The notes under the pieces were generated by a model. That model was not told where the DNA came from. It made no database searches and saw nothing but the letters and a program-made list of their open reading frames with translations. Shown here piece by piece: positions 18,500 to 29,736 of a stretch of 32,240 nucleotides of DNA (within the stretch, counting starts at the first letter, position 1; every line of letters begins with the position of its first letter). The position numbers were made by a program, and so were the translations under genes. This DNA comes from Candidatus Eiseniibacteriota bacterium (GTDB lineage: Bacteria; Eisenbacteria; RBG-16-71-46), in the NCBI GenBank assembly GCA_044222065.1, contig JBGAOA010000047.1:1-32240 (forward strand), in the 5' to 3' direction.

Positions 18500-18832
18500 A
18501 TGACCGACGCCCTGATGGTGTTCAGCACGTTTCCCGACGAAGCGACCGGCGCCGCGATCGTGCGCACGCTCGTCGAGGAGCGGCTCGCGGCCTGCGGCAC
18601 GCTGCTGCCCGGCGCGCGCTCGATCTACCGCTGGGAAGGCGCGCTCGAGGACGCGCGCGAGGTCGTCGCGATCCTCAAGACGCGCAAGCAGGACTGGCCC
18701 GCGCTCCAGTCGCGGCTGCACGAGCTGCATCCCTACCGCACGCCCGAGTGCGTCGCGGTGCGGATCGCGTCCGGCGCGCCGCGCTACATGGAGTGGCTCG
18801 AGGCCTCGCTCGCCCCGGAGGGCGGAGCGTGA
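18500..18832 (+). CDS. cutA: Divalent-cation tolerance protein CutA
   Basis: STFPD...LVEERLAAC...SIYRWEG...E...ILKT...LHPYRTPE...Y..WL. Confidence 0.93.
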   Translation: MTDALMVFSTFPDEATGAAIVRTLVEERLAACGTLLPGARSIYRWEGALEDAREVVAILKTRKQDWPALQSRLHELHPYRTPECVAVRIASGAPRYMEWLEASLAPEGGA

Positions 18833-19887
18833 GCGGCGCGCGCCGCGTCGGGCCCGGGGACGCGCGCCTCGTCCTCGGCATCGAGACCTCGTGCGACGAC
18901 AGTTCGGTCGCGGTGCTCGAGGACGGCCGCACGCTGCGCGCGCACCTCATCGCCGCGCAGGACGTGCACAAGCTCTACGGCGGCGTGGTTCCGGAACTCG
19001 CCTCGCGCGCGCACCTCGCGCTGCTGCCGCCGCTCGTGCGGCAGGCGCTCGAGGACGCCGGGATCGAGGCGCGCGAACTCACCGCGATTGCCGTCACGCG
19101 CGCGCCGGGACTCGTCGGCTCGCTCGTCGTGGGCGTCGCGTTCGCGCGCGCTCTCGGCCTCGCGCTCGGCATTCCCGTCGCGGGCGTCAATCACATCGAG
19201 GGCCACCTGCACGCGGGCACGCTCGAACACGGCCCGAGCCCCGAGCCCGCGGTCGCGCTCGTCGTGAGCGGCGGGCACACCGAGATCGTCGAAGTGCGCG
19301 GGTTCGGCCGCTACCGCTGGCTCGGCAGCACGCGCGACGACGCGGCGGGCGAGGCGTTCGACAAGGTCGCGAAGCTGCTCGGCCTCGGTTTCCCGGGCGG
19401 GCCCGTGATCGACCGGCTCGCGCGCGAGGGACGGCGCGATGCGTTCGACTTCCCGCGCCCGATGCTCGACCAGCCGGGGTACGACCTGTCGTTCTCGGGA
19501 CTCAAGACCGCCGTGCTGCAGGCGCTCGCGGCGCGCGGCGGCGTGCCGGACGATCCCGCGCTCGTGCGCGATCTCGCGGCCTCGTTCCAGGCGGCGGTCG
19601 TGGACGTGCTCGTCGCGAAGAGCCTGCGCGCCGTCGAGGACACGGGCGCTCGTGCGCTCAACCTGGGCGGCGGCGTGGCGTGCAACCGCGAGCTGCGCGA
19701 GCGGCTCGCCGCCGAGTGCGCCGCGCGCGGCGTCGCGCTGCGCGTCCCGGCGCCGCGGCTGTGCGCCGACAACGCCGGCATGATCGCGCAGGTCGGCGCC
19801 TGGATGATCCAGCGCGGCGACCTGGGCCCGCCCGACGTCGAGATCGTCTCCTCGCTCGAGGAATCGGGGTTGCCGCTCGGCGCCTGA
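18829..19887 (+). CDS. tsaD: tRNA N6-adenosine threonylcarbamoyltransferase TsaD
   Basis: LGIETSCDDS, YGGVVPELASRAH, PGLVGSL, NHIEGH, VSGGHT, TRDDAAGEAFDK, SFSGLKT, GGVACN, DNAGMI. GTGA overlap with cutA. Confidence 0.96.
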   Translation: MSGARRVGPGDARLVLGIETSCDDSSVAVLEDGRTLRAHLIAAQDVHKLYGGVVPELASRAHLALLPPLVRQALEDAGIEARELTAIAVTRAPGLVGSLVVGVAFARALGLALGIPVAGVNHIEGHLHAGTLEHGPSPEPAVALVVSGGHTEIVEVRGFGRYRWLGSTRDDAAGEAFDKVAKLLGLGFPGGPVIDRLAREGRRDAFDFPRPMLDQPGYDLSFSGLKTAVLQALAARGGVPDDPALVRDLAASFQAAVVDVLVAKSLRAVEDTGARALNLGGGVACNRELRERLAAECAARGVALRVPAPRLCADNAGMIAQVGAWMIQRGDLGPPDVEIVSSLEESGLPLGA

Positions 19888-19953
19888 GCGGCGTTCGCGC
19901 CCGCCCGGGGCGCGTTTCGGGCGCTCGTCCGGGGCATCGGACCCGATTCGCGC

Positions 19954-19981
19954 TCAAGTCGTTGCCGGACTTTGCCGATCC
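19954..19981 (+). promoter_or_regulatory. Sigma28 (FliA/SigD/WhiG)-type promoter
   Basis: TCAAG-N15-GCCGATCC upstream of the REC-GGDEF gene. The same architecture recurs at 23456. Confidence 0.7.
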
Positions 19982-20076
19982 CCATTCGCGAAGGCATGCA
20001 CGGAGAGATCCTCGCCGCGGCGTCGCGACGCCCGGTGGGGCTCGGTCTCGATCGATCGACGTCCGGAGTTCCGCTC

Positions 20077-21045
20077 GTGACGAAGCCGACCATTCTGGTG
20101 GTCGAAGACGAACTGCACCTGCGCGAAGTCCTCCGCTTCCAGCTCGAGGCGGCCGGCTTCCAGGTGCTGCTCGCCGAGAACGGTCAGGAAGGCTTCGAGA
20201 AGGCCGGCCGCGAGCTGCCCGACCTCGTGCTCATGGACGTGATGATGCCGGTGTGCGACGGCTACGAGGCGCTGCGGAAGATGCGCAGCTCGTTCGGGAC
20301 GAAGAACATCCCGATCATCCTGCTCACCGCGAAGGCCGAGTCGAACGACAAGGTCTCGGGCCTCGAGGGCGGCGCGAACGACTACGTCACGAAGCCGTGG
20401 GACCACAAGGAGCTGATGCTGCGGATCCGCAACGTGCTCGAGTGGAGCCGCCAGCAGCGCTCCGCGAGCCCGCTCACGGGTCTGCCGGGTAACCTGTCCA
20501 TCAACGATGCGATCCATCGCCGCATCGAGGCGAAGCAGCCGTTCGCGCTGCTCCAGATCGACATCGACTACTTCAAGGCCTTCAACGACTACTACGGCTA
20601 CGCGCGCGGGGACGACGCGATCCGCCACGTCGCCGAGATCCTCGTGGACTGCAGCCACCATCACGGCGGCGCGGACAATTTCATCGGTCACATCGGCGGC
20701 GACGACTTCGTCATCCTGACGAGTCCGCAGCACGCGCAGGGACTGGGCGAGGAGATCCTGCAGCGCTTCGACGAGGTCGCGCGCGGCCTCTACGACTCCG
20801 AGGACCTGGTGCGCGGCTACGTCGAGGTGCGCAACCGCCGCCACGTCGTCGAGCGCTTCCCGGTGATGAGCCTCACGATCGCGCTCGTGAGCACCGATCG
20901 CTATCCGGTCGACCACCTCGCGCAGCTCATCGACGTCGCGCAGGAACTGAAGGCCCACGGCAAGGGCATGACCGGCAGCGTGCTCGTGAACGAGCGTCGG
21001 CGCGCGGCCGAGTCGGACGCGGCGCCCGGCCGGAACGTCGCCTGA
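20077..21045 (+). CDS. Response regulator with REC and GGDEF (GGDDF variant) domains
   Basis: GTG after GGAG. REC: VVEDE, MDVMMP, TAK, TKP. GGDEF: PLTGLPGN, DIDYFKAFND, GD, IGGDDF. Confidence 0.9.
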   Translation: MTKPTILVVEDELHLREVLRFQLEAAGFQVLLAENGQEGFEKAGRELPDLVLMDVMMPVCDGYEALRKMRSSFGTKNIPIILLTAKAESNDKVSGLEGGANDYVTKPWDHKELMLRIRNVLEWSRQQRSASPLTGLPGNLSINDAIHRRIEAKQPFALLQIDIDYFKAFNDYYGYARGDDAIRHVAEILVDCSHHHGGADNFIGHIGGDDFVILTSPQHAQGLGEEILQRFDEVARGLYDSEDLVRGYVEVRNRRHVVERFPVMSLTIALVSTDRYPVDHLAQLIDVAQELKAHGKGMTGSVLVNERRRAAESDAAPGRNVA

Positions 21046-21064
21046 CCCTCGAGGGGACACCACC

Positions 21065-23374
21065 ATGAACCCGTTGACGAGCTCGATTCCTTCCACCCGC
21101 GATCCCGCGGGAATGCTGCCGATGCTCGCCCAGGCGCTGCTCGCGCTGCGCAGCACGCGCGACCTCGGCGCCGCCGGCGCGATCGTCGGCTCCTGCATCG
21201 TGAACGCCCTCGAGGCGACCGACTACCGGCTGCTGCGCGTGGACGCGCGCAGCGGCGCGCTGCGCTGCCTCGACGGCTGCGGCGTCGAGACGCCGTACCT
21301 CGCCGAGCCCGACGGCGCCGTGCACCGCGTGCTGCAGGGCGTCGAGCCGCTCTACCTCGGGCCGGACGACCTCGAGAAGGTCTCGCCCGAGCCCGGCCTG
21401 TGGATCGGACCGCCGGCCTCGCTCATCGTGCTGCCGCTCCAGTCGGGCAGCCGCGTGCTCGGGCTGCTGCTCGTGGGCTTCGACCTGCCGACCGACGTGG
21501 ACGCGGTCGGACGCCAGTTCCTGCAGACGCTGTCCGACGGGCTCGCGCTCGCCTTCGAGCGCGCGGAACTGCGCCAGCGCGGCGCCGAGGACCACCGCCG
21601 CGTGCTCGAGCTCGAACACCGGCGCGCCGAGGGCGAGGAGATCTCCTCGAACCTGATGGCCATCGTCGCGGACGAGATCCGCACGCCGCTCACCGCGATC
21701 AAGGCCTACACCGAGGCGATGATCGAGCACCTCTCGAACCCGCACGCGCCGCGCGAGCGGTTCCTCGGCATCATCAGCGACGAATGCGACCGGCTGCAGC
21801 GGCTCGTCGGCGACGTGCTCGACCTGTCGAAGCTCGAGGCCGGCCAGCGCCCGCTCCGGCTCGCGCGGACGAGCCTCGAGTCGCTCGTGCGCGAGGTCGC
21901 CGACCAGCACTCGGCCGAGGCGCGCGGGCGCCACGTCGGGATCGAGACGAAGGCCGACGACGGGCTCGTCGTCGAGTGCGACCCCGACCTCGTGCGCCGG
22001 ATGCTCTCGAACCTCGTCGCGCACGCGATCAAGTTCTCGCCCACCGGCTCGACCGTGCGCATCGCGGCGAGCGCGCGCGGCGACGACTGGATCGCGACCG
22101 TCGAGGACGACGGCACGCCGCTGCCGCCCGAGGAGCTGCCGTACGCGTTCGAGCGCTTCTACCGCGGCCGGCCCGGCGTCGAGCAGGGCAAGGAAGGTTC
22201 GGGCCTCGGGCTCGCGATCGCGCGCGGCGTCGCCGAACTGCACGGCGGGCGCGTGTGGGCGCAGTCGCGCGGCGCGCGCGGCGTGCGCTCGTGCGTGCAG
22301 CTGCCGGTGCGCCAGGTCGCCTCGCCGCGGGCGCGCCGCATCGCGCGCCAGACCTGGAGCCGCTCCGACCTGCGCGAGCTGTTCCATCGCACCGTGGATC
22401 TCGTCGCCGCGTCCATGAGCGCCGAGATCGTGTCGTTCATGCTCGTGGACGCCGAGAAGGGCGACCTGTTCATCGCCGCCTCGCGCGGCCTCGAGGGCCA
22501 GAACCTGCTCGGCCGCCGCACGACGCTGCGTTCCGGCGTCGCGGGCGCGGTCGCGGCGCTCGGCCGGCCGCTGCTCGTCTCGAACATCGAGACCGACCGG
22601 CGCTTCAGCCGGCTCAACCATCCGCAGTACCGCACGAAGTCGCTGCTGTGCGTGCCCGTGCGCGTGGACGGCGAGGTGCTCGGCGTGCTCAACGTGAACA
22701 ACAAGAGCACCGGCGAGTGCTTCGACGAGGACGATCTCGCCGTGCTGTCGGCGCTCGTCGAGCGCATCGGCAGCGCGGTCGAGCGCGCGCTCGCGCATCC
22801 CGACAGCGAGCGCGTCGTCGCCGAGGCGATCGCGGCGGTCGAGAACGTGACGCGCCTCCAGCGCGAGCACCTGCTCGAGATCCGCGACGCCGTGCACCTC
22901 GCGCGCGCGACCGCGCGCGAGCTGAACATGCTCGAGCCCGACGTGGACCTGATCGGCTACGTCGCGAGCATCCACGACCTCGGCATGACGTCGCTCAAGT
23001 CGCGCGTCGCGCGGCCCGAGCCGCTCGACGAGGAAGGCCAGCGAGAGGTGCGGCAGCACCCGCAGGTGAGCGTCGAGATCCTGCGGCCGCTGGAATACCT
23101 GAGCAGCGTGCGCGACATCACGCTCGCCCACCACGAGCGCTGGGACGGCACCGGCTACCCGCACGGCGCCGCGGGGGCGGACATCCCGATCGGGGGGCGG
23201 ATCCTCGCGGTCGTGGACGCGTTCCTGAGCATGACGAGCGGCCGTCCGTACCGGAGCGCCCGCTCGCGCGAGGAGGCGGTCGGCGAGCTGCGCCACGAGG
23301 CGGGCCGCCAGTTCGACCCCGAGGTCGTCGAGGCGTTCCTGAGGGCCCTGGAGCGCGAGGCCGAGGCGGCCTGA
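21065..23374 (+). CDS. GAF - degenerate HisKA/HATPase - GAF - HD-GYP hybrid signalling protein
   Basis: H-box reads ADEIRTPL, N-box NLVAHAIKFS, G1 EDDGTP, F-box FERFYR, G2 GSGLGL. GAF2 has SLLCVPV...LGVLNVNNK...FDEDD. HD-GYP has IHDLG, QHP, HHERWDGTGYP, RPYR, QFDPEVV. Confidence 0.88.
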   Translation: MNPLTSSIPSTRDPAGMLPMLAQALLALRSTRDLGAAGAIVGSCIVNALEATDYRLLRVDARSGALRCLDGCGVETPYLAEPDGAVHRVLQGVEPLYLGPDDLEKVSPEPGLWIGPPASLIVLPLQSGSRVLGLLLVGFDLPTDVDAVGRQFLQTLSDGLALAFERAELRQRGAEDHRRVLELEHRRAEGEEISSNLMAIVADEIRTPLTAIKAYTEAMIEHLSNPHAPRERFLGIISDECDRLQRLVGDVLDLSKLEAGQRPLRLARTSLESLVREVADQHSAEARGRHVGIETKADDGLVVECDPDLVRRMLSNLVAHAIKFSPTGSTVRIAASARGDDWIATVEDDGTPLPPEELPYAFERFYRGRPGVEQGKEGSGLGLAIARGVAELHGGRVWAQSRGARGVRSCVQLPVRQVASPRARRIARQTWSRSDLRELFHRTVDLVAASMSAEIVSFMLVDAEKGDLFIAASRGLEGQNLLGRRTTLRSGVAGAVAALGRPLLVSNIETDRRFSRLNHPQYRTKSLLCVPVRVDGEVLGVLNVNNKSTGECFDEDDLAVLSALVERIGSAVERALAHPDSERVVAEAIAAVENVTRLQREHLLEIRDAVHLARATARELNMLEPDVDLIGYVASIHDLGMTSLKSRVARPEPLDEEGQREVRQHPQVSVEILRPLEYLSSVRDITLAHHERWDGTGYPHGAAGADIPIGGRILAVVDAFLSMTSGRPYRSARSREEAVGELRHEAGRQFDPEVVEAFLRALEREAEAA

Positions 23375-23455
23375 GGGCCGCCGGCGGCCGCCCCGGCGGC
23401 CGCCGCCCCCGTCCGGCGCCGGTCGGGGCTTCCGCCCCCCGGGGGCAGTTCGCTC

Positions 23456-23483
23456 TCAAGGTGCAAAGTGCGGACGCCGATAC
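23456..23483 (+). promoter_or_regulatory. Sigma28-type promoter
   Basis: TCAAG-N15-GCCGATAC. It shares the upstream TTCGC(G/T)CTCAAG with the 19954 site. Confidence 0.75.
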
Positions 23484-23489
23484 CGTGAT

Positions 23490-23785
23490 CGAAGCGGGTC
23501 GCAATCCGGCTCCGGCCGGTGCACGCGGATCGGGATCGTGACCGGCTTCGTTCGCTCCGAACGCGGCGCGAAAGCGCGTCGCGCGAAGCAGCCAAGGAAC
23601 CGGATGCGCCGCAGCGGGCGGCACACGAAGGCCAGACAGCGGAAGCGCTCCCGACGGGAAGCCGGCGCGGAGCGGGACCGGAACGACGCGACGACGGCGG
23701 AAGCGCCGGAACTCGCGAGGATTCGCACCGAGGGAGCGGCGCCGAAGCGGCGATCCGCGAACACGCGCGGGAGGTGACGGCAGCG
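23490..23785 (+). promoter_or_regulatory. Long GGA-rich 5' leader or possible CsrB/RsmZ-like RNA
   Basis: 14 GGA triplets counted on the + strand versus 5 TCC. Several lie in short hairpins, and the last overlaps the GGAGG RBS. Confidence 0.4.
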
Positions 23786-24181
23786 ATGGCGAAGGGAAGG
23801 ATCCTGGTGGTGGACGACGAGATCTACATCGTCCACATCCTCGACTTCAGCCTCGGCATGGAAGGCTACGAAGTGCTGACCGCGCTCGATGGCGAGCAGG
23901 CGCTGGAGAAAGCCCGCGCCGAGCGGCCGGACCTCGTCGTGCTGGACATCATGATGCCGAAGCTCGACGGCTACGAGACGTGCAAGATGCTGAAGAGCGA
24001 CGAGCGCACGAAGCACATCCCGGTGATCCTGCTGTCCGCGAAGGGACGGAACGTGGATCAGAAGATCGGGTTCGAGGTCGGCGCCGACGACTACATCACG
24101 AAGCCGTTCAGTCCGCGCAAGCTGGTCGAGCGCATCAACGCGATCCTCGGCCAGACGAATCCGCAACGCATGCAGGCCTGA
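23786..24181 (+). CDS. Single-domain response regulator (CheY/DivK-like receiver)
   Basis: ATG after GGAGGTG. ILVVDDE, LDIMMP, LSAK, DYITKP. The gene ends right after the receiver domain. Confidence 0.93.
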   Translation: MAKGRILVVDDEIYIVHILDFSLGMEGYEVLTALDGEQALEKARAERPDLVVLDIMMPKLDGYETCKMLKSDERTKHIPVILLSAKGRNVDQKIGFEVGADDYITKPFSPRKLVERINAILGQTNPQRMQA

Positions 24182-24206
24182 CGGTCCCCGCGGCCGTCCC
24201 CGCTCG

Positions 24207-24239
24207 AACGCCCGGCGAAGCGCCGGGCGTTTCTGCTTT
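24207..24239 (+). terminator. Rho-independent terminator
   Basis: AACGCCCGGCG-AAG-CGCCGGGCGTT followed by TCTGCTTT, just after the REC stop. Confidence 0.75.
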
Positions 24240-24339
24240 GGGGCGCGGCCCGGCTTGCGAAGGCGCGCGCGAGGCCGGAAGCTGCCGCCTCGCCGCGACG
24301 CGGCCGCCTCCGCACGCCACGAACCCCGCTCGAGTCGCC

Positions 24340-26340
24340 ATGTCCTTCGCGCACGTCGCGCTCCCGATTCCGCTCCGCCAGACCTTCGTCTATCGCGTTC
24401 CCGGCGACCTCGCGGCGCGCGCCCGTCCCGGTGCGCACGTCGCGGTGAAGTTCCGCGGCCGGATCGAGCGCGGATGGATCGTCGAGCTCGCGCGCGAGAG
24501 CGAGCGCGCGGACGCGCTCGCGATCGAGCGCGTGCTCGAGTCGCCGCCCGTCACGCCGCACCTGCTCGCGCTCGCCCGCTGGGTCGCCGAGTACTACGTC
24601 GCGCCGGTCGGCATGGCGCTCGCGGCGACGCTGCCGGGCGGCGTCGAGGGCTTCGAGCGCAGCCGGGCGCGCAAGCGCGCGGCCGAGGATCCGGTGCTCG
24701 CGATGGCGCTGCCCGAGCGGCGCGCGCTCACGGCCGACCAGCGAGCGGCGCTCGAGGCGATCCTGCCGGCGGTGAAGAGCGGCGGCTTCCAGCCGTTCCT
24801 CCTGCACGGGGTCACCGCGAGCGGCAAGACCGAGGTGTACCTGCGCGCCGTCGCGGCGGCGCGCGACGCCGGCGGCCAGGCGCTCGTGCTCGTCCCCGAG
24901 GTCGCGCTCGGCAGCCAGATCGTGCGGCTCTTCGAGCAGCGCTTCCGCGGCCGCGTCGGTGTGCTGCACTCGTACCTCGGCGTGGGCGAGCGGCGCCGCA
25001 ACTGGGAACTCGCGAGCCGCGGCGCGCTCGACGTCGTCGTCGGCGCGCGCTCGGCCGTGTTCGCGCCGCTGCCGAACCTGCGGCTCGTCGTCGTGGACGA
25101 GGAGCACGAGCCCGCTTACAAGCAGAGCGAACAGCTGCGCTACCACGGCCGCGACGTCGCGGTGCGGCGCGCCCAGATGCTCGGACTCCCGATCGTGCTC
25201 GGCTCGGCGACGCCGAGCCTGGAGTCGCTCGCGAACGCGGCGCGCGGCCGATACCGCCGCCTGTCGATGCCGAAGCGCGTGGACGGCCGGCCGCTGCCGC
25301 GCGTCCACGTCGTGGACCTGCGGCGCGAGCGCGCCGGCGACTCGCTCGTCTCGCCGGCGCTCGGCGCGGCGCTCGGCGAACGGCTCGCGCGCGGCGAGCA
25401 GGCGATGCTGTTCCTCAACCGCCGCGGCCACTCGCACTACAGCCAGTGCCGCGCGTGCGGCTGGGTCGCGGAGTGCGAGCACTGCGACATCGCGCTCACG
25501 CTCCACCTCGAGCCGCTCGAGTGGCGGTGCCACTACTGCGACACGCGCACGCCCGCGCGGCGCGAGTGCCCGAAGTGCCGGGCCGCGCTGCTGCGCTTCT
25601 CGGGCTCGGGGACGCAGCGCGCCGAACGCGAGCTCGCCGCGTCGTTCCCGAAGGCGCGCGTTCTGCGGCTCGATACCGACGTCGCCCGCCGGCGGACGAG
25701 CCCGGGCGAGATCGTCGCCGCGTTCGCGCGTGGCGATGCCGACGTGCTCGTCGGCACGCAGATGATCGCGAAGGGGCTCGACTTCCCGCGCGTGACGCTC
25801 GTCGGCGTGCTCGACGCCGACGTCGCGCTCCACCTGCCCGACTTCCGCGCGTCGGAGCGCACGCTGCAGCTGCTGCAGCAGGTGTCGGGACGCGCCGGGC
25901 GAGGCGCCGTCGCGGGCGAGGTGTTGGTCCAGACGTGCACGCCCGACCATCCCGCGATCGCCGCGTTCGTCACGGGCGAGACGCGCGCGTTCCTCGAGCG
26001 CGAGCTCGAGCTGCGGCGCGAGGCCGGCTACCCGCCGTTCCGCCGCATCGCGACGCTGCTGTTCTCGGGGCCCGACGCGAGCGAGGTGGACGCGCTCGCG
26101 GGCGCGACGGCCGATGCGTTGCGCGCGTCGCCCGCAGGCGCGTCCGTGGACGTGCTCGGCCCGGCGCCGCAGGCGCTCGCGCGCCTGCGCGGGCAGCACC
26201 GGCGTCACGTGCTCGGGAAGGGCGCGCACGCGGGGCCGCTGCGCGCGGCGCTCGAGGCCGCGCTCGCGGCGGCGGAGTCGGGCGGACGGCGGGCGAAGGC
26301 GCGAGTCGCCGTGGACGTGGATCCCGTGGACGTGCTGTGA
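24340..26340 (+). CDS. priA: Primosomal replication-restart helicase PriA
   Basis: LHGVTASGKTEVY, LVPE, GARSAVFAP, DEEHE, GSATPSLES, NRRG, four CxxC pairs, GTQMIAKGLDFP, QVSGRAGR, YPPF. Confidence 0.96.
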   Translation: MSFAHVALPIPLRQTFVYRVPGDLAARARPGAHVAVKFRGRIERGWIVELARESERADALAIERVLESPPVTPHLLALARWVAEYYVAPVGMALAATLPGGVEGFERSRARKRAAEDPVLAMALPERRALTADQRAALEAILPAVKSGGFQPFLLHGVTASGKTEVYLRAVAAARDAGGQALVLVPEVALGSQIVRLFEQRFRGRVGVLHSYLGVGERRRNWELASRGALDVVVGARSAVFAPLPNLRLVVVDEEHEPAYKQSEQLRYHGRDVAVRRAQMLGLPIVLGSATPSLESLANAARGRYRRLSMPKRVDGRPLPRVHVVDLRRERAGDSLVSPALGAALGERLARGEQAMLFLNRRGHSHYSQCRACGWVAECEHCDIALTLHLEPLEWRCHYCDTRTPARRECPKCRAALLRFSGSGTQRAERELAASFPKARVLRLDTDVARRRTSPGEIVAAFARGDADVLVGTQMIAKGLDFPRVTLVGVLDADVALHLPDFRASERTLQLLQQVSGRAGRGAVAGEVLVQTCTPDHPAIAAFVTGETRAFLERELELRREAGYPPFRRIATLLFSGPDASEVDALAGATADALRASPAGASVDVLGPAPQALARLRGQHRRHVLGKGAHAGPLRAALEAALAAAESGGRRAKARVAVDVDPVDVL

Positions 26341-26435
26341 GGGCGGTGTGCGCGCGCGCCACACCGTCGCGCGCGCGACACGCATCGCGACCGCGTCCAG
26401 CGCGCGTCAACCGCGCGTGGAATGCGCCGTGGTTC

Positions 26436-26465
26436 TTGACGTATCGCGAGTTGCGGACCTAGTCT
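26436..26465 (+). promoter_or_regulatory. Sigma70-type promoter
   Basis: TTGACG-N18-TAGTCT upstream of the HD gene. Confidence 0.55.
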
Positions 26466-26535
26466 GCGGCCTCTCTTTCGCGCCCTCTTAAGCCCGGGCC
26501 CGCTGGCATCGTTCCCGCACATGGAAGGCTCGCGA

Positions 26536-27261
26536 ATGACCCGTTCGAACCCGGTATCCCACAGCCCCGAAGGCGCCGCCGCGCCCGCCGTGGACGGCCA
26601 CCACCTCCTGTTCGCGCAGCTGCGCGAGATGCCGAAGGTGCGCCAGTACGTCCGCATGGCCGACGCCGCGCTCGAGCAGATCGGGTACACCGAACACGGC
26701 GAGCGGCACGTGAGCCTCGTCGCGAAGATCGCGTTCAACGTGCTCAAGCGGCTCGGCCACGAGGAGCGCTCGTGCGAGCTCGCCTCGATCGCCGGCTTCC
26801 TGCACGACATCGGGAACGCGGTGAACCGCGAGCACCACGCGCAGACGGGCGCCGTGATGGCGATGCAGCTGCTCACGGAGCTCGGCATGCCCGAGAACGA
26901 GATCCTCACCGTGATCGCGGCGATCGGGAACCACCACGAGAACGACGGCGACCCGGTGAATCCGGTCGCCGCCGCGGTGATCCTCGCGGACAAGAGCGAC
27001 GTGCACCGCACGCGCGTCCGCAACCCGGACATGATCAAGTTCGACATCCACGACCGCGTGAACTACGCGGTCGAGAAGAGCTTCCTCAACGTGGACGAGG
27101 CTCACAAGCTCATCACGCTGGAGCTCACGATCGACACGTCGATCTCGCAGGTCATGGAGTACTTCGAGATCTTCATGACCCGCATGCTGGCGTCCCGGAA
27201 GGCGGCGAAGTACCTCGGCTGCCAGTTCGGGCTGATGGTCAACGGCAATCGCCTCACGTGA
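26536..27261 (+). CDS. HD-superfamily metal-dependent phosphohydrolase
   Basis: GYTEHGERH, LHDIGN, HH, GNHHE, ILADKSD, DIHDRVNYAV. Start is 26536 (RBS GGAAGG) or 26521. Confidence 0.85.
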   Translation: MTRSNPVSHSPEGAAAPAVDGHHLLFAQLREMPKVRQYVRMADAALEQIGYTEHGERHVSLVAKIAFNVLKRLGHEERSCELASIAGFLHDIGNAVNREHHAQTGAVMAMQLLTELGMPENEILTVIAAIGNHHENDGDPVNPVAAAVILADKSDVHRTRVRNPDMIKFDIHDRVNYAVEKSFLNVDEAHKLITLELTIDTSISQVMEYFEIFMTRMLASRKAAKYLGCQFGLMVNGNRLT

Positions 27262-27284
27262 ACGAGGCGAGAAGGAGGACGGCC

Positions 27285-28718
27285 TTGAAGTTCCGTGTCG
27301 GGATCTTCGTCGCGGTCGCGGTCGCGATGGTCGCGCTCGCGGGGGTGGCGCTGGCGCGCAATCCGCATTGCGCCGGCGGGATTCAGTACGTGGTGGGGGG
27401 CTTGCGCGACAAGGAAAAGGGACTCACGGACGATTACCTGCGCCAGATGAACAAGGCCGTGCAGCAGCTCGAGCAGTGCGCCGGTGAAGACGGCGAGGAC
27501 TTCGAGGCGATCGGCTACCTGGGCTGGGCGTACGCCGAGCTCGACAGCGCCGGGCCCGCGGGCGCGGCGTTCCAGAAGGCGATCGACGGCCTGACCGCGA
27601 AGGGCGACAAGAAGAAGGTCGACGTCGCGACTCAGAACCGCGAGTCGTACTGGAGCCGCTACTTCAACGACGGCATCGCCAAGATCGGCGAGGCGCAGTC
27701 GCTGTACCCGGACTTCGCGCAGTCGCCGAAGGACGACGGCGAGAAGGTGCAGAAGGAAGAGGCCCAGAAGCGCTACGAGGCCGCGATGGTCGCGTTCACG
27801 CGCGCCTCGCTGCTCAAGCCGAACGATTCGCGCACGATGCGCAGCCTCGGCACGGTGTACTACCTCACCGGCGACTACGCCTCGGCGATGAAGACGTTCC
27901 AGGCCGGTCTCTCGGCGGCGCCGGGCGACACCGCGCTCCAGGAATCCATGAAGAGCACGGTGCAGCAGTACGCGAACAGCCTGCTCGAGGCGAAGAAGTA
28001 CGACGAGGCGATCGAGACGCTGCAGGACCTCATCAAGTCGGACGCGAACAACGCGGACCTCTACCTCGGCCTCGGCAGCGCGTACTTCAGCCGCGCGCAG
28101 GGCAAGGAAGGCGACGCGCGCAAGCCGGACTTCGTGCTCGCGGGCGACACCTACGCGAAGGCGGGCGCGCTGCGTCCCTCCGACGCGGACCTCACGTTCA
28201 ACGCGGCGCTCGCGTACCAGAAGGGCGGCGCGCACGACAAGTCGGTCGGGCAGTGGCTCGAGACGCTGAAGCGCCGTCCCGACGACGCCGACGCGACGGC
28301 GGCGCTCGCCGAGTCCTACTCCGAACTCAAGCAGTGGGACGAGGCGGTGAAGGTGCTGCACACGGCGGTGCTCAAGACCCCGCAGGCGAGCCAGCTCCAC
28401 CGCCAGCTCGGCTCGGTGTACAGCAAGGCCGGAAACACGGCGAAGGCCACCGAAGAGCTGCTCATGTTCCTCTCGATGCGCGGCACGCCGGCACCGGATC
28501 CGGCGGCGACGGCGAAGGGCGCGAAGGCCGGTTCGGCCGCCGCGCAGACGCTCGCGAGCCAGGGCGCGCCCGACGCGGTGTACGCGTGGGAGGGAGACGG
28601 GCAGAAGTACCAGAGCTGGATGTACTGGTCGAAGAAGGTCGCCTTCCACTTCAACACCGAAGGCGCTCAGGCCGCGAAGACCGACTGGTCCACGACGGCC
28701 GCGGCCGCGAAGAAGTGA
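27285..28718 (+). CDS. Secreted tetratricopeptide-repeat protein
   Basis: TTG start after AAGGAGG, then a signal peptide. Multiple TPR-like repeats (LGWAYAEL, LGTVYYLTGDY, LGSAYF, LAESYSELKQWDEA, LGSVYSKAG). Confidence 0.8.
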   Translation: MKFRVGIFVAVAVAMVALAGVALARNPHCAGGIQYVVGGLRDKEKGLTDDYLRQMNKAVQQLEQCAGEDGEDFEAIGYLGWAYAELDSAGPAGAAFQKAIDGLTAKGDKKKVDVATQNRESYWSRYFNDGIAKIGEAQSLYPDFAQSPKDDGEKVQKEEAQKRYEAAMVAFTRASLLKPNDSRTMRSLGTVYYLTGDYASAMKTFQAGLSAAPGDTALQESMKSTVQQYANSLLEAKKYDEAIETLQDLIKSDANNADLYLGLGSAYFSRAQGKEGDARKPDFVLAGDTYAKAGALRPSDADLTFNAALAYQKGGAHDKSVGQWLETLKRRPDDADATAALAESYSELKQWDEAVKVLHTAVLKTPQASQLHRQLGSVYSKAGNTAKATEELLMFLSMRGTPAPDPAATAKGAKAGSAAAQTLASQGAPDAVYAWEGDGQKYQSWMYWSKKVAFHFNTEGAQAAKTDWSTTAAAAKK

Positions 28719-28788
28719 CGATGCGCGCGTGCGCCGCGCGGCCCGGCCGGGTCGCGCGGCGCCGCGCATTCGAGCGGAACGTCCGCGC

Positions 28789-29736
28789 GTGAATGCGATC
28801 CGCGAGGTCGCGGTCCTCGGGTTCGGACACCAGGGCGAGGCGCAGGCGCTGAACCTGCGCGACGCCGGCGTGCGCGTGGTGGTCGGCGCGCGACCCGGTC
28901 GCGCCGCCGAGGCGCGCGCCCGCGAGGCGGGCTTCGAGACGCGGTCTCCCGACGCGGCGGTGCGCGACGCGGACGTCGTCGCGATGCTGCTGCCCGACGA
29001 GGCGATGGCCGAGGCGTGGCCCGCGCTCGCAGCGGCCGCCGGGCGGACGCCGTCGCTCGTGTTCGCGCACGGCTTCGCGCTCCTCTATGCGGATCTCGCG
29101 CTCGAGCGTTTCGGAGACGTCGTCGTGGTGTCGCCCACCGCGCCCGGGCGCGTGCTCCGCGCGACCCGCGCCGCCGGCGGCACGTTGCCCGGCTACCTGG
29201 CGGTGCACCGTGATCGCAGCGGCGATGCGAGCGCGCTCGGCCGCGAGTACGCGGCGGCGATCGGGATCGCGCCGCTCGTGACGACGAGCGTGCGCGAGGA
29301 AACGGAAGTGGACCTCTTCGGCGAGCAGGTCGTGCTGTGCGGCGGCCTCCAGTCGCTCGTCGCCGCGGCGTTCGAGACGCTCGTCGCGCGCGGCTTCACG
29401 CCCGAGGTCGCCTATCTCGAGTGCGTCCACCAGCTCAAGTACCTCGCGGACCTGCTCCACGAGAAAGGGCCGGCCGAGTTTCGCGGCGGGATCAGCGGCA
29501 CCGCGCTCTACGGGGACCTCACTCGCGGACCGCGAGTGATCGGCGCCGAGTCGCGGGCGGAGATGGCCCGGATCCTCGACGAGATCCGGAGCGGACGATT
29601 CGCCGCGGAGTGGCGCGACGAGGTCCGGAAGGGGAAGCCGGTCACGCGCGCCGCGCTCGCGGCGGCGGAAGCGCACCCGATCGAGCGGGCCCGGCGCCGG
29701 GCTCTCGGAATTCCGGATGCCGATCCGGCGCGCTGA
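28789..29736 (+). CDS. ilvC: Ketol-acid reductoisomerase-like protein (short class I), atypical active site
   Basis: GFGHQGEAQALNLRDAG, LLPDE, FAHGF, ETEVDLFGEQVVLCGG, FETLV, AYLEC, TALYGD. The start is uncertain (GTG 28789 or 28729). Confidence 0.82.
   Translation: MNAIREVAVLGFGHQGEAQALNLRDAGVRVVVGARPGRAAEARAREAGFETRSPDAAVRDADVVAMLLPDEAMAEAWPALAAAAGRTPSLVFAHGFALLYADLALERFGDVVVVSPTAPGRVLRATRAAGGTLPGYLAVHRDRSGDASALGREYAAAIGIAPLVTTSVREETEVDLFGEQVVLCGGLQSLVAAAFETLVARGFTPEVAYLECVHQLKYLADLLHEKGPAEFRGGISGTALYGDLTRGPRVIGAESRAEMARILDEIRSGRFAAEWRDEVRKGKPVTRAALAAAEAHPIERARRRALGIPDADPAR

Follow-up and report, generated by a model that had tools for sequence, protein, structure and literature searches.

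A kinase-like GAF-HD-GYP hybrid without its phosphoacceptor His at a conserved receiver locus of a Candidatus Eiseniibacteriota bacterium

The locus and its forms among relatives

The window analyzed here is a stretch of 32,240 nucleotides from a Candidatus Eiseniibacteriota bacterium (GenBank assembly GCA_044222065.1, contig JBGAOA010000047.1, positions 1 to 32,240 of the forward strand; contig C91 of genome G000 in the present set; 72% GC, genome 94% complete). Between the housekeeping genes tsaD and priA, the gene calls place three co-oriented signalling genes, as the initial annotation of this DNA had described (Table 1). They encode a receiver (REC) protein with a GGDDF-type GGDEF domain (REC-GGDDF), a hybrid of a histidine kinase (HK) core with GAF and HD-GYP domains (paralogue A), and a single-domain REC. 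In paralogue A the phosphoacceptor His is replaced by Asp, the HD-GYP domain lacks catalytic residues for cleavage of cyclic di-GMP (c-di-GMP), and a second kinase gene, B, has been lost from this genome. The DNA runs that contain the stretch come from activated-sludge, bioreactor or wastewater metagenomes, and close relatives with names are mostly Ca. Eisenbacteria.

Locus sequence was retrieved from 99 relatives, many of whose contigs end short. The usual order is tsaD-(REC-GGDDF)-HK A-HK B-(REC)-priA, where A and B are paralogous kinase/HD-GYP hybrids. The tandem of A, like that of the window, followed by B, which has a different N-terminus, is found in 42 of the 99 loci; A alone is present in 20 (one contig stops inside A) and B alone in 17. 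The remaining 20 loci, all from other families, hold neither hybrid, and in most of them REC-GGDDF and REC are adjacent. REC-GGDDF and REC are both present in 92 loci, which bears out the synteny expected for the module, and all four marker genes are present in 61. Among the 151 genomes of the searched group, the REC-GGDDF gene has a single match in 149, and hybrid matches occur in 102, only from families f1 (that of the window), f2, f7, f9 and f11. Based on these locus forms, the REC-GGDDF/REC pair is the ancient core, to which one branch added kinases, and the window preserves three genes of a locus that had four before kinase gene B was lost.

In the two genomes of family f3 (L199:8601-10022 and L200:5332-6750), a 474-aa His-less protein is located between REC-GGDDF and REC. 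This protein has a hydrophobic N-terminus, is fully degenerate, shows no Pfam match and was found solely by the family profile (B-profile match, E about 1e-23); it is without the second GAF and HD-GYP half. It is an independent, B-derived pseudokinase in the same slot. An apparent A-B fusion of 1628 aa (P0135) was rejected as frameshift read-through, since A aligns to residue 568 and is followed by unrelated sequence and then by B. When metagenome contigs were scanned for close relatives, nothing but distant kinases came up (25-37% identity), and the genome of P0015, a database relative of the hybrid, was not among 89 genomes searched across the family. In the Atlas, a 987-aa cluster with the domains of the hybrid is commonest in Ca. 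Krumholzibacteriota and shorter GAF-kinase clusters are found in Gemmatimonadota, so the hybrid architecture may reach beyond the searched group.

Table 1 Features of the locus (window positions)
Feature	Position	Strand	Basis
tsaD	18748..19887	+	Pfam TsaD, E 1.6e-92; flanking housekeeping gene; adjoins the module in 85/99 relatives' loci
P1, sigma28/WhiG2-type motif CTCAAG-N15-GCCGAT	19953-19979	+	Motif enrichment; position weight matrix upstream of orthologues
REC-GGDDF protein (Pfam: REC-GGDEF)	20077-21045	+	Pfam; catalytic and receiver residues across orthologues
Hybrid, paralogue A, 769 aa	21065-23374	+	Pfam HisKA, HATPase_c, GAF, HD_5
Asp codon replacing phosphoacceptor His203	21671-21673	+	His in 118/119 nearest homologues; identical letters in contigs of 4 studies
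Met641 codon replacing HD-GYP catalytic Lys (PmGH K225)	22985-22987	+	Met in 238/238 database homologues
Relic of deleted paralogue B coding sequence	23434-23505	+	Strand preceding the CA N-box helix; B profile match
P2, second sigma28/WhiG2-type motif	23455-23481	+	Originally inside gene B; kept between A and REC in A-only genomes
Single-domain receiver (REC)	23786-24181	+	Pfam; Asp54, Lys106
Possible intrinsic terminator	24206-24239	+	12-bp hairpin, short U tail; z -3.4
priA	24340..26340	+	Pfam PriA domains; flanking housekeeping gene

Kinase, HD-GYP and receiver domains

Paralogue A is composed of a GAF-like region (residues about 14-168), a domain for dimerization and histidine phosphotransfer (DHp, 195-260), a catalytic and ATP-binding (CA) domain (306-416), a GAF domain (GAF2, 434-573) and a degenerate HD-GYP domain (598-754), with no clear transmembrane segment. 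Pfam calls HisKA, HATPase_c, one GAF (434-573) and HD_5; the N-terminal region is probably a GAF domain as well, given its secondary structure in the model and a weak profile match to GAF2 (E 2.7e-4, probability 41%). The H-box reads DEIRTP, that is, H203D, in agreement with the original description of a kinase-like protein that lacks its phosphoacceptor. The same letters are present in error-free contigs from each of the four DNA runs compared, which derive from four studies; N320H is seen in the three runs whose listed contigs cover that site, and the direct A-to-REC junction is spanned by one contig in two runs. Two further sets of lesions, overlooked previously, are N320H itself and P351T/G352P/I353L in the G1 box; the G2 box is intact. 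At columns conserved to at least 90%, the window protein departs in 2 of 43 positions in DHp, 6 of 54 in CA, 3 of 78 in GAF2 and 2 of 56 in HD-GYP. This concentration on catalytic sites argues against general decay and, together with the near-identical contigs of four studies, led to the rejection of sequencing error or a pseudogene as the cause of Asp203.

The residues of an active HisKA kinase (His, along with the N-box Asn and a G1-box DxGxG for Mg-ATP) are thus missing from window A, and the DHp surface is kept: Glu at H+1, Thr at H+4 and the residues at H+7, H+11 and H+12 are all retained. The last three positions, which are taken here to be receiver contacts by their place in EnvZ, carry identical residues in A and B. 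Replacement of His with retention of the docking surface is the pattern of a DivL-like protein; the second mark of such a protein, a non-His state conserved across orthologues, is not observed. In the A-only genera g3 and g4, nonsynonymous divergence (dN) is well below synonymous divergence (dS) in every domain. Taken as a whole, this pattern of substitutions makes window A look like a pseudokinase under selection.

The loss is restricted to certain lineages. Among the 119 nearest database homologues, His203 and Asn320 are each present in 118 and Gly352 in 115. Since 118 of 119 keep His, the pseudokinase is a lineage-specific derivative, and the proposal that it is part of the circuit's design fails on the very observation that had been named as its refutation, orthologues with a canonical His. 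When the kinase hallmarks (His, N-box Asn, G1 and G2 Gly) were scored, they were found intact in 41 of the 42 A copies that stand beside B and in none of the 21 A-only copies, window included. For B, the hallmarks are intact in 16 of 17 B-only copies, in 41 of 42 copies beside A (the exception is a frameshift-split row) and in all 119 B-type database homologues. The second Gly of the G1 box is gone from all A-only copies, 10 of the 21 of which have Thr, Gly, Asn or Asp in place of His; G120 is a B-only copy with His changed to Arg. Most copies of paralogue B in families f1 and f2 (e.g., L119 and L120) have His or Gln for the first N-box Asn and keep the second.

In trees built by a quick method, window A is positioned within the starred clade of intact A copies, apart from the g3/g4/g24 clade (11 of 64 A rows were left out of the first A tree). 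A single origin of all A-only copies was rejected on the A tree, thinned to 33 rows, by the approximately unbiased (AU) test (p-AU 0.0165). In the tree of neighbouring genes, the window pairs with G010, a genome that has both A and B (support 98). From these phylogenies, the loss of kinase residues in A-only genomes likely happened twice, in separate lineages.

The C-terminal half of A aligns along the whole of PmGH from Persephonella marina (residues 25-356 of the PDB chain, E 2.3e-41). The HD-GYP fold and its HD, HHExxDGxGYP and RxY(K/R) motifs are present, as expected from the earlier label of a degradation-type domain, but the catalytic residues that this label implies are not: at the position of PmGH K225 (PmGH numbering hereafter) there is a Met, and H189 is absent. 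In PmGH, the Ala mutants H189A, K225A, D183A and D308A are inactive, and in its captured c-di-GMP complex the G-site iron alone was present (PMC4159591; this and the other sources given by identifier are cited for the passages that bear on each point). The K225 column is Met in all 119 A-type and all 119 B-type database homologues. In the register of an ungapped alignment, which at H189 and D183 runs through a low-confidence part of the model (the active-site loops), the H189 column holds Gly, Ala, Ser or Asn in the 119 A-type homologues and Glu in the window, and the D183 column is not Asp; the D308 column is mostly Glu, and Leu in the window. R314, K317 (as Arg), H250, H276, H277 and D305 are invariant in all 238 homologues and Y285 is present in 237; H221 and D222 are also kept in A. 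The genome set shows the same pattern, and the domain is more decayed still in f2 and in part of the B copies. Two canonical HD-GYP proteins of the same genome (on C106 and C32) keep the His and Lys.

The combination expected of a phosphodiesterase, H189 with K225/D183, is therefore missing, and R314, K/R317 and Y285, which contact guanine and phosphate, are kept while catalytic residues are lost, as expected of a degenerate receptor like DvhD of Desulfovibrio. The HD-GYP domain of A is likely a c-di-GMP sensor more than a phosphodiesterase, one that would bind the dinucleotide and not cleave it. A gated phosphodiesterase output, as first proposed, is unlikely, since it would have to work without the residues whose Ala mutants kill PmGH activity. 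GAF2 carries an almost invariant NK...F..(D/E)D signature (window 22700-22738, residues 546-557), presumably a counterpart of the NKFDE motif, and shows weak matches to the GAF domains of PDE2, PDE5, PDE10 and adenylate cyclase. It may bind a cyclic mononucleotide.

Both receiver domains are intact, as had been noted, each with an acidic pair, Asp54, Thr/Ser84 and Lys106. In the single REC, Asp54 is present in 93 and Lys106 in all of 94 orthologues, and identity is about 80-94% in the families that carry hybrids. In REC-GGDDF, Asp54, DxDxFK, Asn170, Asp179, GGDDF and Lys292 are found in 95 of 95 orthologues and Asp164 in 94; no RxxD I-site was found in this set of 95. Invariance across the group argues for activity, and REC-GGDDF is a probable phosphorylation-activated diguanylate cyclase without an RxxD I-site. 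Asp179, which is taken by PleD numbering to be the diagnostic position of the Hypr (cGAMP synthase) enzymes, is conserved in all 95, so the Ser that marks Hypr in place of the guanine-binding Asp is not seen. The protein also lies outside the PleD family: it has one REC and no RxxD, and scores 139.8 bits against an NCBIfam cut-off of 474. Of GGDDF domains elsewhere, one has been shown to be active and another is reported inactive (PMC8835794).

Promoter motifs and the genes they precede

The motif TCAAG-N15-GCCGAT occurs exactly twice in the window, compared with 0.03 expected from shuffles, and genome-wide CTCAAG-N15-GCCGAT has 12 matches compared with 0-5 at other spacers from 5 to 30. The window motif equals the WhiG2 consensus T(A/C)AA-N16-GCCGATAA / GCCGAT(AA), which is that of Actinomycetota (PMC12871210); the spacer of the Pseudomonas aeruginosa fliC promoter is one base shorter (PMC12784957). 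Upstream of REC-GGDDF, P1 reaches a position weight matrix score of at least 10 in 38 of 50 loci of f1 and 11 of 13 of f7, with 0 and 1 antisense controls, respectively. The assignment of P1 and P2 as sigma28/WhiG-type promoters is supported by this consensus fit, the enrichment, the conserved position and the presence of FliA/WhiG in the genome. No sigma70-type promoter was found in the promoter scan.

The twin promoters of the initial annotation are real as motifs; the second, however, does not have the origin that a pair would suggest. In f1, P2 lies within the coding sequence of B, about 1.5 kb upstream of REC. In P2, all 32 copies (19 of 19 genera) use GAT for the Asp codon, compared with an overall background of 0.24, and the GAT fraction at 14 other conserved Asp columns is at most 0.61; this bias points to selection on the DNA. 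The f1 B-protein profile matches a window frame at B positions 378-401 (E 3.5e-4, 3 frames), this relic covers the same codons as the B-internal motif, and P2 is kept between A and REC in all 19 other A-only genomes with that junction. By this alignment, P2 is a relic of the putative intragenic promoter of deleted gene B. A short B isoform is not claimed: downstream of the B-internal promoter no conserved internal start with a Shine-Dalgarno sequence was found, SD-like letters being present in at most 7 of 19 genera.

At the other end of the unit, a 12-bp hairpin (24206-24232) has a z of -3.4, and 1 of 200 shuffles folds as well. The terminator scan of the window did not call it, and a loose test for a hairpin followed by TTT picks out 22 of 48 family loci. 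The terminator said to close the unit thus stands as a hairpin and is, as a terminator after REC, plausible but weakly supported. Contigs from RNA runs are near-identical to parts of all three genes (one spans 23543-24167 and others cross P1); they show neither starts nor levels and were not used as evidence. No Rfam family, c-di-GMP riboswitches included, matched in 18500-26500. The true start of tsaD is probably further downstream within its open reading frame, and downstream of priA an HD-domain gene, a TPR gene and ilvC (26521-29736) form a block that is conserved in many relatives.

The genome has two FliA/WhiG genes, one on C103 in a flagellar cluster and one on C121 beside mglA and a MinD/FlhG-like gene. 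The motif has no match on the flagellar contig C103. In G000 it precedes pilMNOPQ, a PilB-type ATPase gene with an MshEN domain, mglA, two hybrid kinases and a REC-Hpt protein. Its position is conserved before pilM in 21 of 28 relatives, pilB/MshEN in 24 of 27 and mglA in 24 of 28; since the mglA coding control reaches at least 10 in 18, the fair cut for mglA is at least 15 bits, which leaves 21 of 28 against 1 coding control. Of the 151 genomes, 143 have FliA/WhiG and 51 have FlhA, and P2 also occurs where there is a single sigma factor and no FlhA match (e.g., G001, G010, G044 and G083). These are not the traits of a flagellar class 3/4 regulon. The motif before pilMNOPQ, PilB/MshEN and mglA, and its persistence without flhA, point to a pilus/polarity regulon under a non-flagellar FliA/WhiG sigma factor to which the module would belong. 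The suggested flagellar tie is not borne out, the conserved motif-bearing genes tested being those of the type IV pilus and mglA.

In several flagellated families, a single FliA is encoded a few kb from flhA, and the C121 sigma factor may accordingly be a flagellar-operon fliA left after flagellar loss. FlhA is patchy in the family (17 of 59), which suggests secondary gain or repeated loss. C121:3516-18421 (L031, L326 and L336) is a second signalling island with three motif copies nearby; it encodes MglA with a long C-terminal tail, a kinase and NtrC-type pair, a REC, the MinD/FlhG-like protein, the non-flagellar FliA/WhiG sigma factor, a GAF-GGDEF protein and a REC-GAF kinase. A small open reading frame at C121:9293 is FlgM-like by eye only, with no Pfam or NCBIfam match. 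The separate flagellar cluster, with its own second FliA, is at C103:11700-26800 (L032). HEAT-repeat and degenerate HD-GYP-like genes are located at C60:12833-16142 and C3:91539-96864; the C60 pair is downstream of a strong motif copy, and the C3 gene adjoins a kinase with similar DHp contact residues. The motif is also found upstream of DUF6982 and DUF6812 genes (C32:25322-25777 and C66:28589-29107), which are candidate uncharacterised members of the pilus/polarity regulon.

Proposed mechanism, alternatives and known systems

With no intact kinase in the locus, phosphoryl input must come from outside kinases, and REC-GGDDF and REC persist in families that have no kinase there; the module is not self-contained, contrary to what had been suggested. 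The DHp profile matches 14 other kinases in the window genome and does not single out a cognate one. Paralogue A is proposed, at about even chances, to be a non-catalytic, c-di-GMP-gated docking protein for the two receivers, whose phosphorylation would depend on kinases encoded outside the locus. In the four-gene ancestor, the phosphorylation of REC-GGDDF and of the single REC would be set by A and B, which perhaps form a heterodimer. Phosphorylated REC-GGDDF would make c-di-GMP, which would bind the dead HD-GYP domain and feed back through the GAF domain and stalk onto DHp. MshEN domains bind c-di-GMP. Read by the MshEN ATPase, and together with phosphorylated REC (REC~P), the dinucleotide could tune type IV pilus/MglA surface motility. 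The signal would run from c-di-GMP to the kinase core, opposite to the direction first modelled.

Several observations weigh against this proposal or its parts. Kinship among the genomes reduces the 21 of 21 decayed A-only copies to about two events, and the neighbouring-gene tree, which is without 6 of 10 g3 loci, does not reject a single A-only origin (p-AU 0.2). G141 has a decayed A although B is present, and P0015, the nearest database relative, has a decayed CA domain with His kept, so B need not have been lost before A decayed. The HD motif itself is missing from f2 and from some B copies, so the role of the domain is not uniform, and the invariance of five or six HD-GYP metal ligands also fits a non-canonical enzyme. 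Upstream of REC-GGDDF, P1 is found in 0 of 5 f9 loci and 1 of 5 f2 loci. That the module has a motif in common with pilus genes is no proof of its control over pili. Finally, the GGDDF/EAL protein PA3258 has been reported to be inactive (PMC8835794).

The retained DHp surface could instead serve a dedicated phosphatase, kinase-minus and phosphatase-plus, that drains REC~P and REC-GGDDF~P and is switched by c-di-GMP. This is rather unlikely. The Glu at H+1 and Thr at H+4 of window A would suit such a role, the H+4 residue being needed for the phosphatase activity of CrdS, of which a His-to-Ala mutant keeps most (PMC3510030), and the window DHp is 76% identical to intact A copies, compared with 83% among the intact copies themselves. 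However, the N-box Asn and G1 Gly are lost in window A. Many HisKA phosphatases need nucleotide in the CA domain, and in the other A-only lineage the H+4 residue is Ser in 20 of 20 copies and dN of DHp is about 3-5 times higher. That lineage also bears on whether the kinase half is a drifting vestige, the gene being kept for a GAF2-HD-GYP nucleotide receptor or scaffold that ignores the receivers: GAF2 is the most conserved domain in the A-only genera (dN 0.08-0.10, compared with 0.16-0.25 for DHp and CA), and most of the 20 other-family loci pair REC-GGDDF with REC without a hybrid. Such a vestige is improbable, since most conserved columns are retained in the window (DHp, 41 of 43; CA, 48 of 54), no truncated GAF2-HD-GYP-only version is present among the loci fetched, and f3 kept the opposite half, a B-derived His-less GAF-DHp-CA protein without HD-GYP.

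Equally poor prospects are assigned to the initial model, in which a pseudokinase of the DivL type senses REC~P and gates its fused, active HD-GYP phosphodiesterase to balance the neighbouring cyclase. Window A does retain HD, HH, D305 and GYP, its GAF-HD-GYP half can be aligned with active PmGH over the full length, its DHp docking face is preserved, and DivL itself binds DivK~P without kinase or phosphatase activity (10.1101/812529). Against these points, the domain has Met for K225 (238 of 238 homologues) and no H189, and each of these changes abolishes PmGH activity; the genome has canonical HD-GYP proteins with residues of the K225/H189 type (C106 and C32); and His persists in 118 of the 119 nearest homologues, which rules out pseudokinase gating as the conserved design.

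The locus is a variant of known c-di-GMP two-component logic and, by the criteria tested, a member of none of the systems compared. In Caulobacter, the kinases DivJ and PleC serve both PleD (REC-REC-GGDEF) and DivK. By analogy with that DivJ/PleC-DivK/PleD-DivL network, REC-GGDDF and the single REC are encoded together and are probably served by the same HisKA kinases. Unlike that network, the pseudokinase here is sporadic, the kinases have a C-terminal GAF-HD-GYP half and no clear transmembrane segments, and a sigma28-type motif is present; unlike PleD, the cyclase carries a single REC and a GGDDF motif and lacks an RxxD I-site (140 bits against the model cut-off of 474). DivL resembles window A as a His-less kinase homologue with an intact docking face (10.1101/812529). 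The likeness to PmGH (PDB 4MCW/4MDZ) extends over the C-terminal half with H221, D222, H250, H276, H277, D305, Y285 and R314; the differences are Met at K225, no H189/D183, mostly Glu at D308 (Leu in the window), Arg at K317, and the fusion of GAF-HD-GYP behind a histidine kinase core. DvhD, matched in sequence at E about 1e-16, would be an analogue as a degenerate HD-GYP sensor: it is catalytically dead and acts as a c-di-GMP receptor that signals backwards via a helical stalk (PMC13090378). In contrast to paralogue A, in which the metal ligands are largely kept and the partner is a kinase core, DvhD no longer has its HD and HH ligands, and its target is a periplasmic protease.

As regards kinases under c-di-GMP control, SgmT is regulated through a degenerate GGDEF domain. 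In CckA, ShkA and RavS, as here, c-di-GMP would set kinase/phosphatase output via a site on the kinase itself; their sites are CA/PAS domains or a pseudo-receiver, and none of HD-GYP type is described in the passages cited (PMC8534201). WhiG1/WhiG2 of Actinomycetota share the motif fit and are a sigma factor kept without flagella and linked to c-di-GMP (PMC12871210); the targets tested here are different, namely pilMNOPQ, PilB/MshEN and mglA. The CdgK-CdgS pair of Anabaena is alike in that the kinase gene adjoins a phosphorylation-activated REC-GGDEF cyclase (PMC9927289). CdgK is a membrane hybrid phosphorelay kinase, described in that source without an HD-GYP domain, a single REC or a paralogue pair. 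No kinase-HD-GYP fusion was found in a survey of HD-GYP architectures (10.1101/2021.11.05.467447), whose tables and supplements may list such fusions. In searches of the open full-text literature, which does not cover subscription papers, no description of this kinase-GAF-HD-GYP hybrid and nothing on c-di-GMP in Eisenbacteria was found, consistent with the original impression that no system with this architecture had been described.

A broader scheme, doubtful at present, is that this branch of Eisenbacteria has a pair of paralogous, probably heterodimeric kinases that sense via the dead HD-GYP domain and close a c-di-GMP feedback loop with the phylum-wide REC-GGDDF/REC pair, convergent with the DivJ/PleC-DivK/PleD logic of Caulobacter and tied to MglA/pilus polarity and a sigma28 orphaned from flagella, with DivL-like pseudokinases arising repeatedly after partner loss (this genome, g3/g4/g24 and f3). 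The intact, half-decayed and His-less copies tied to paralogue loss make the origin of pseudokinases testable with natural variants, and a promoter within a gene, under selection at synonymous sites and surviving the loss of that gene, is a clean example of regulatory carry-over. If the sensor reading of the HD-GYP domain is true, it would represent a new form of c-di-GMP control of a histidine kinase, with a dead HD-GYP as input, across five families of a phylum for which the literature searches made here gave no such system. The regulon, in turn, suggests that in these uncultured bacteria of sludge and soil a sigma28 uncoupled from flagella governs surface motility by MglA and pili.

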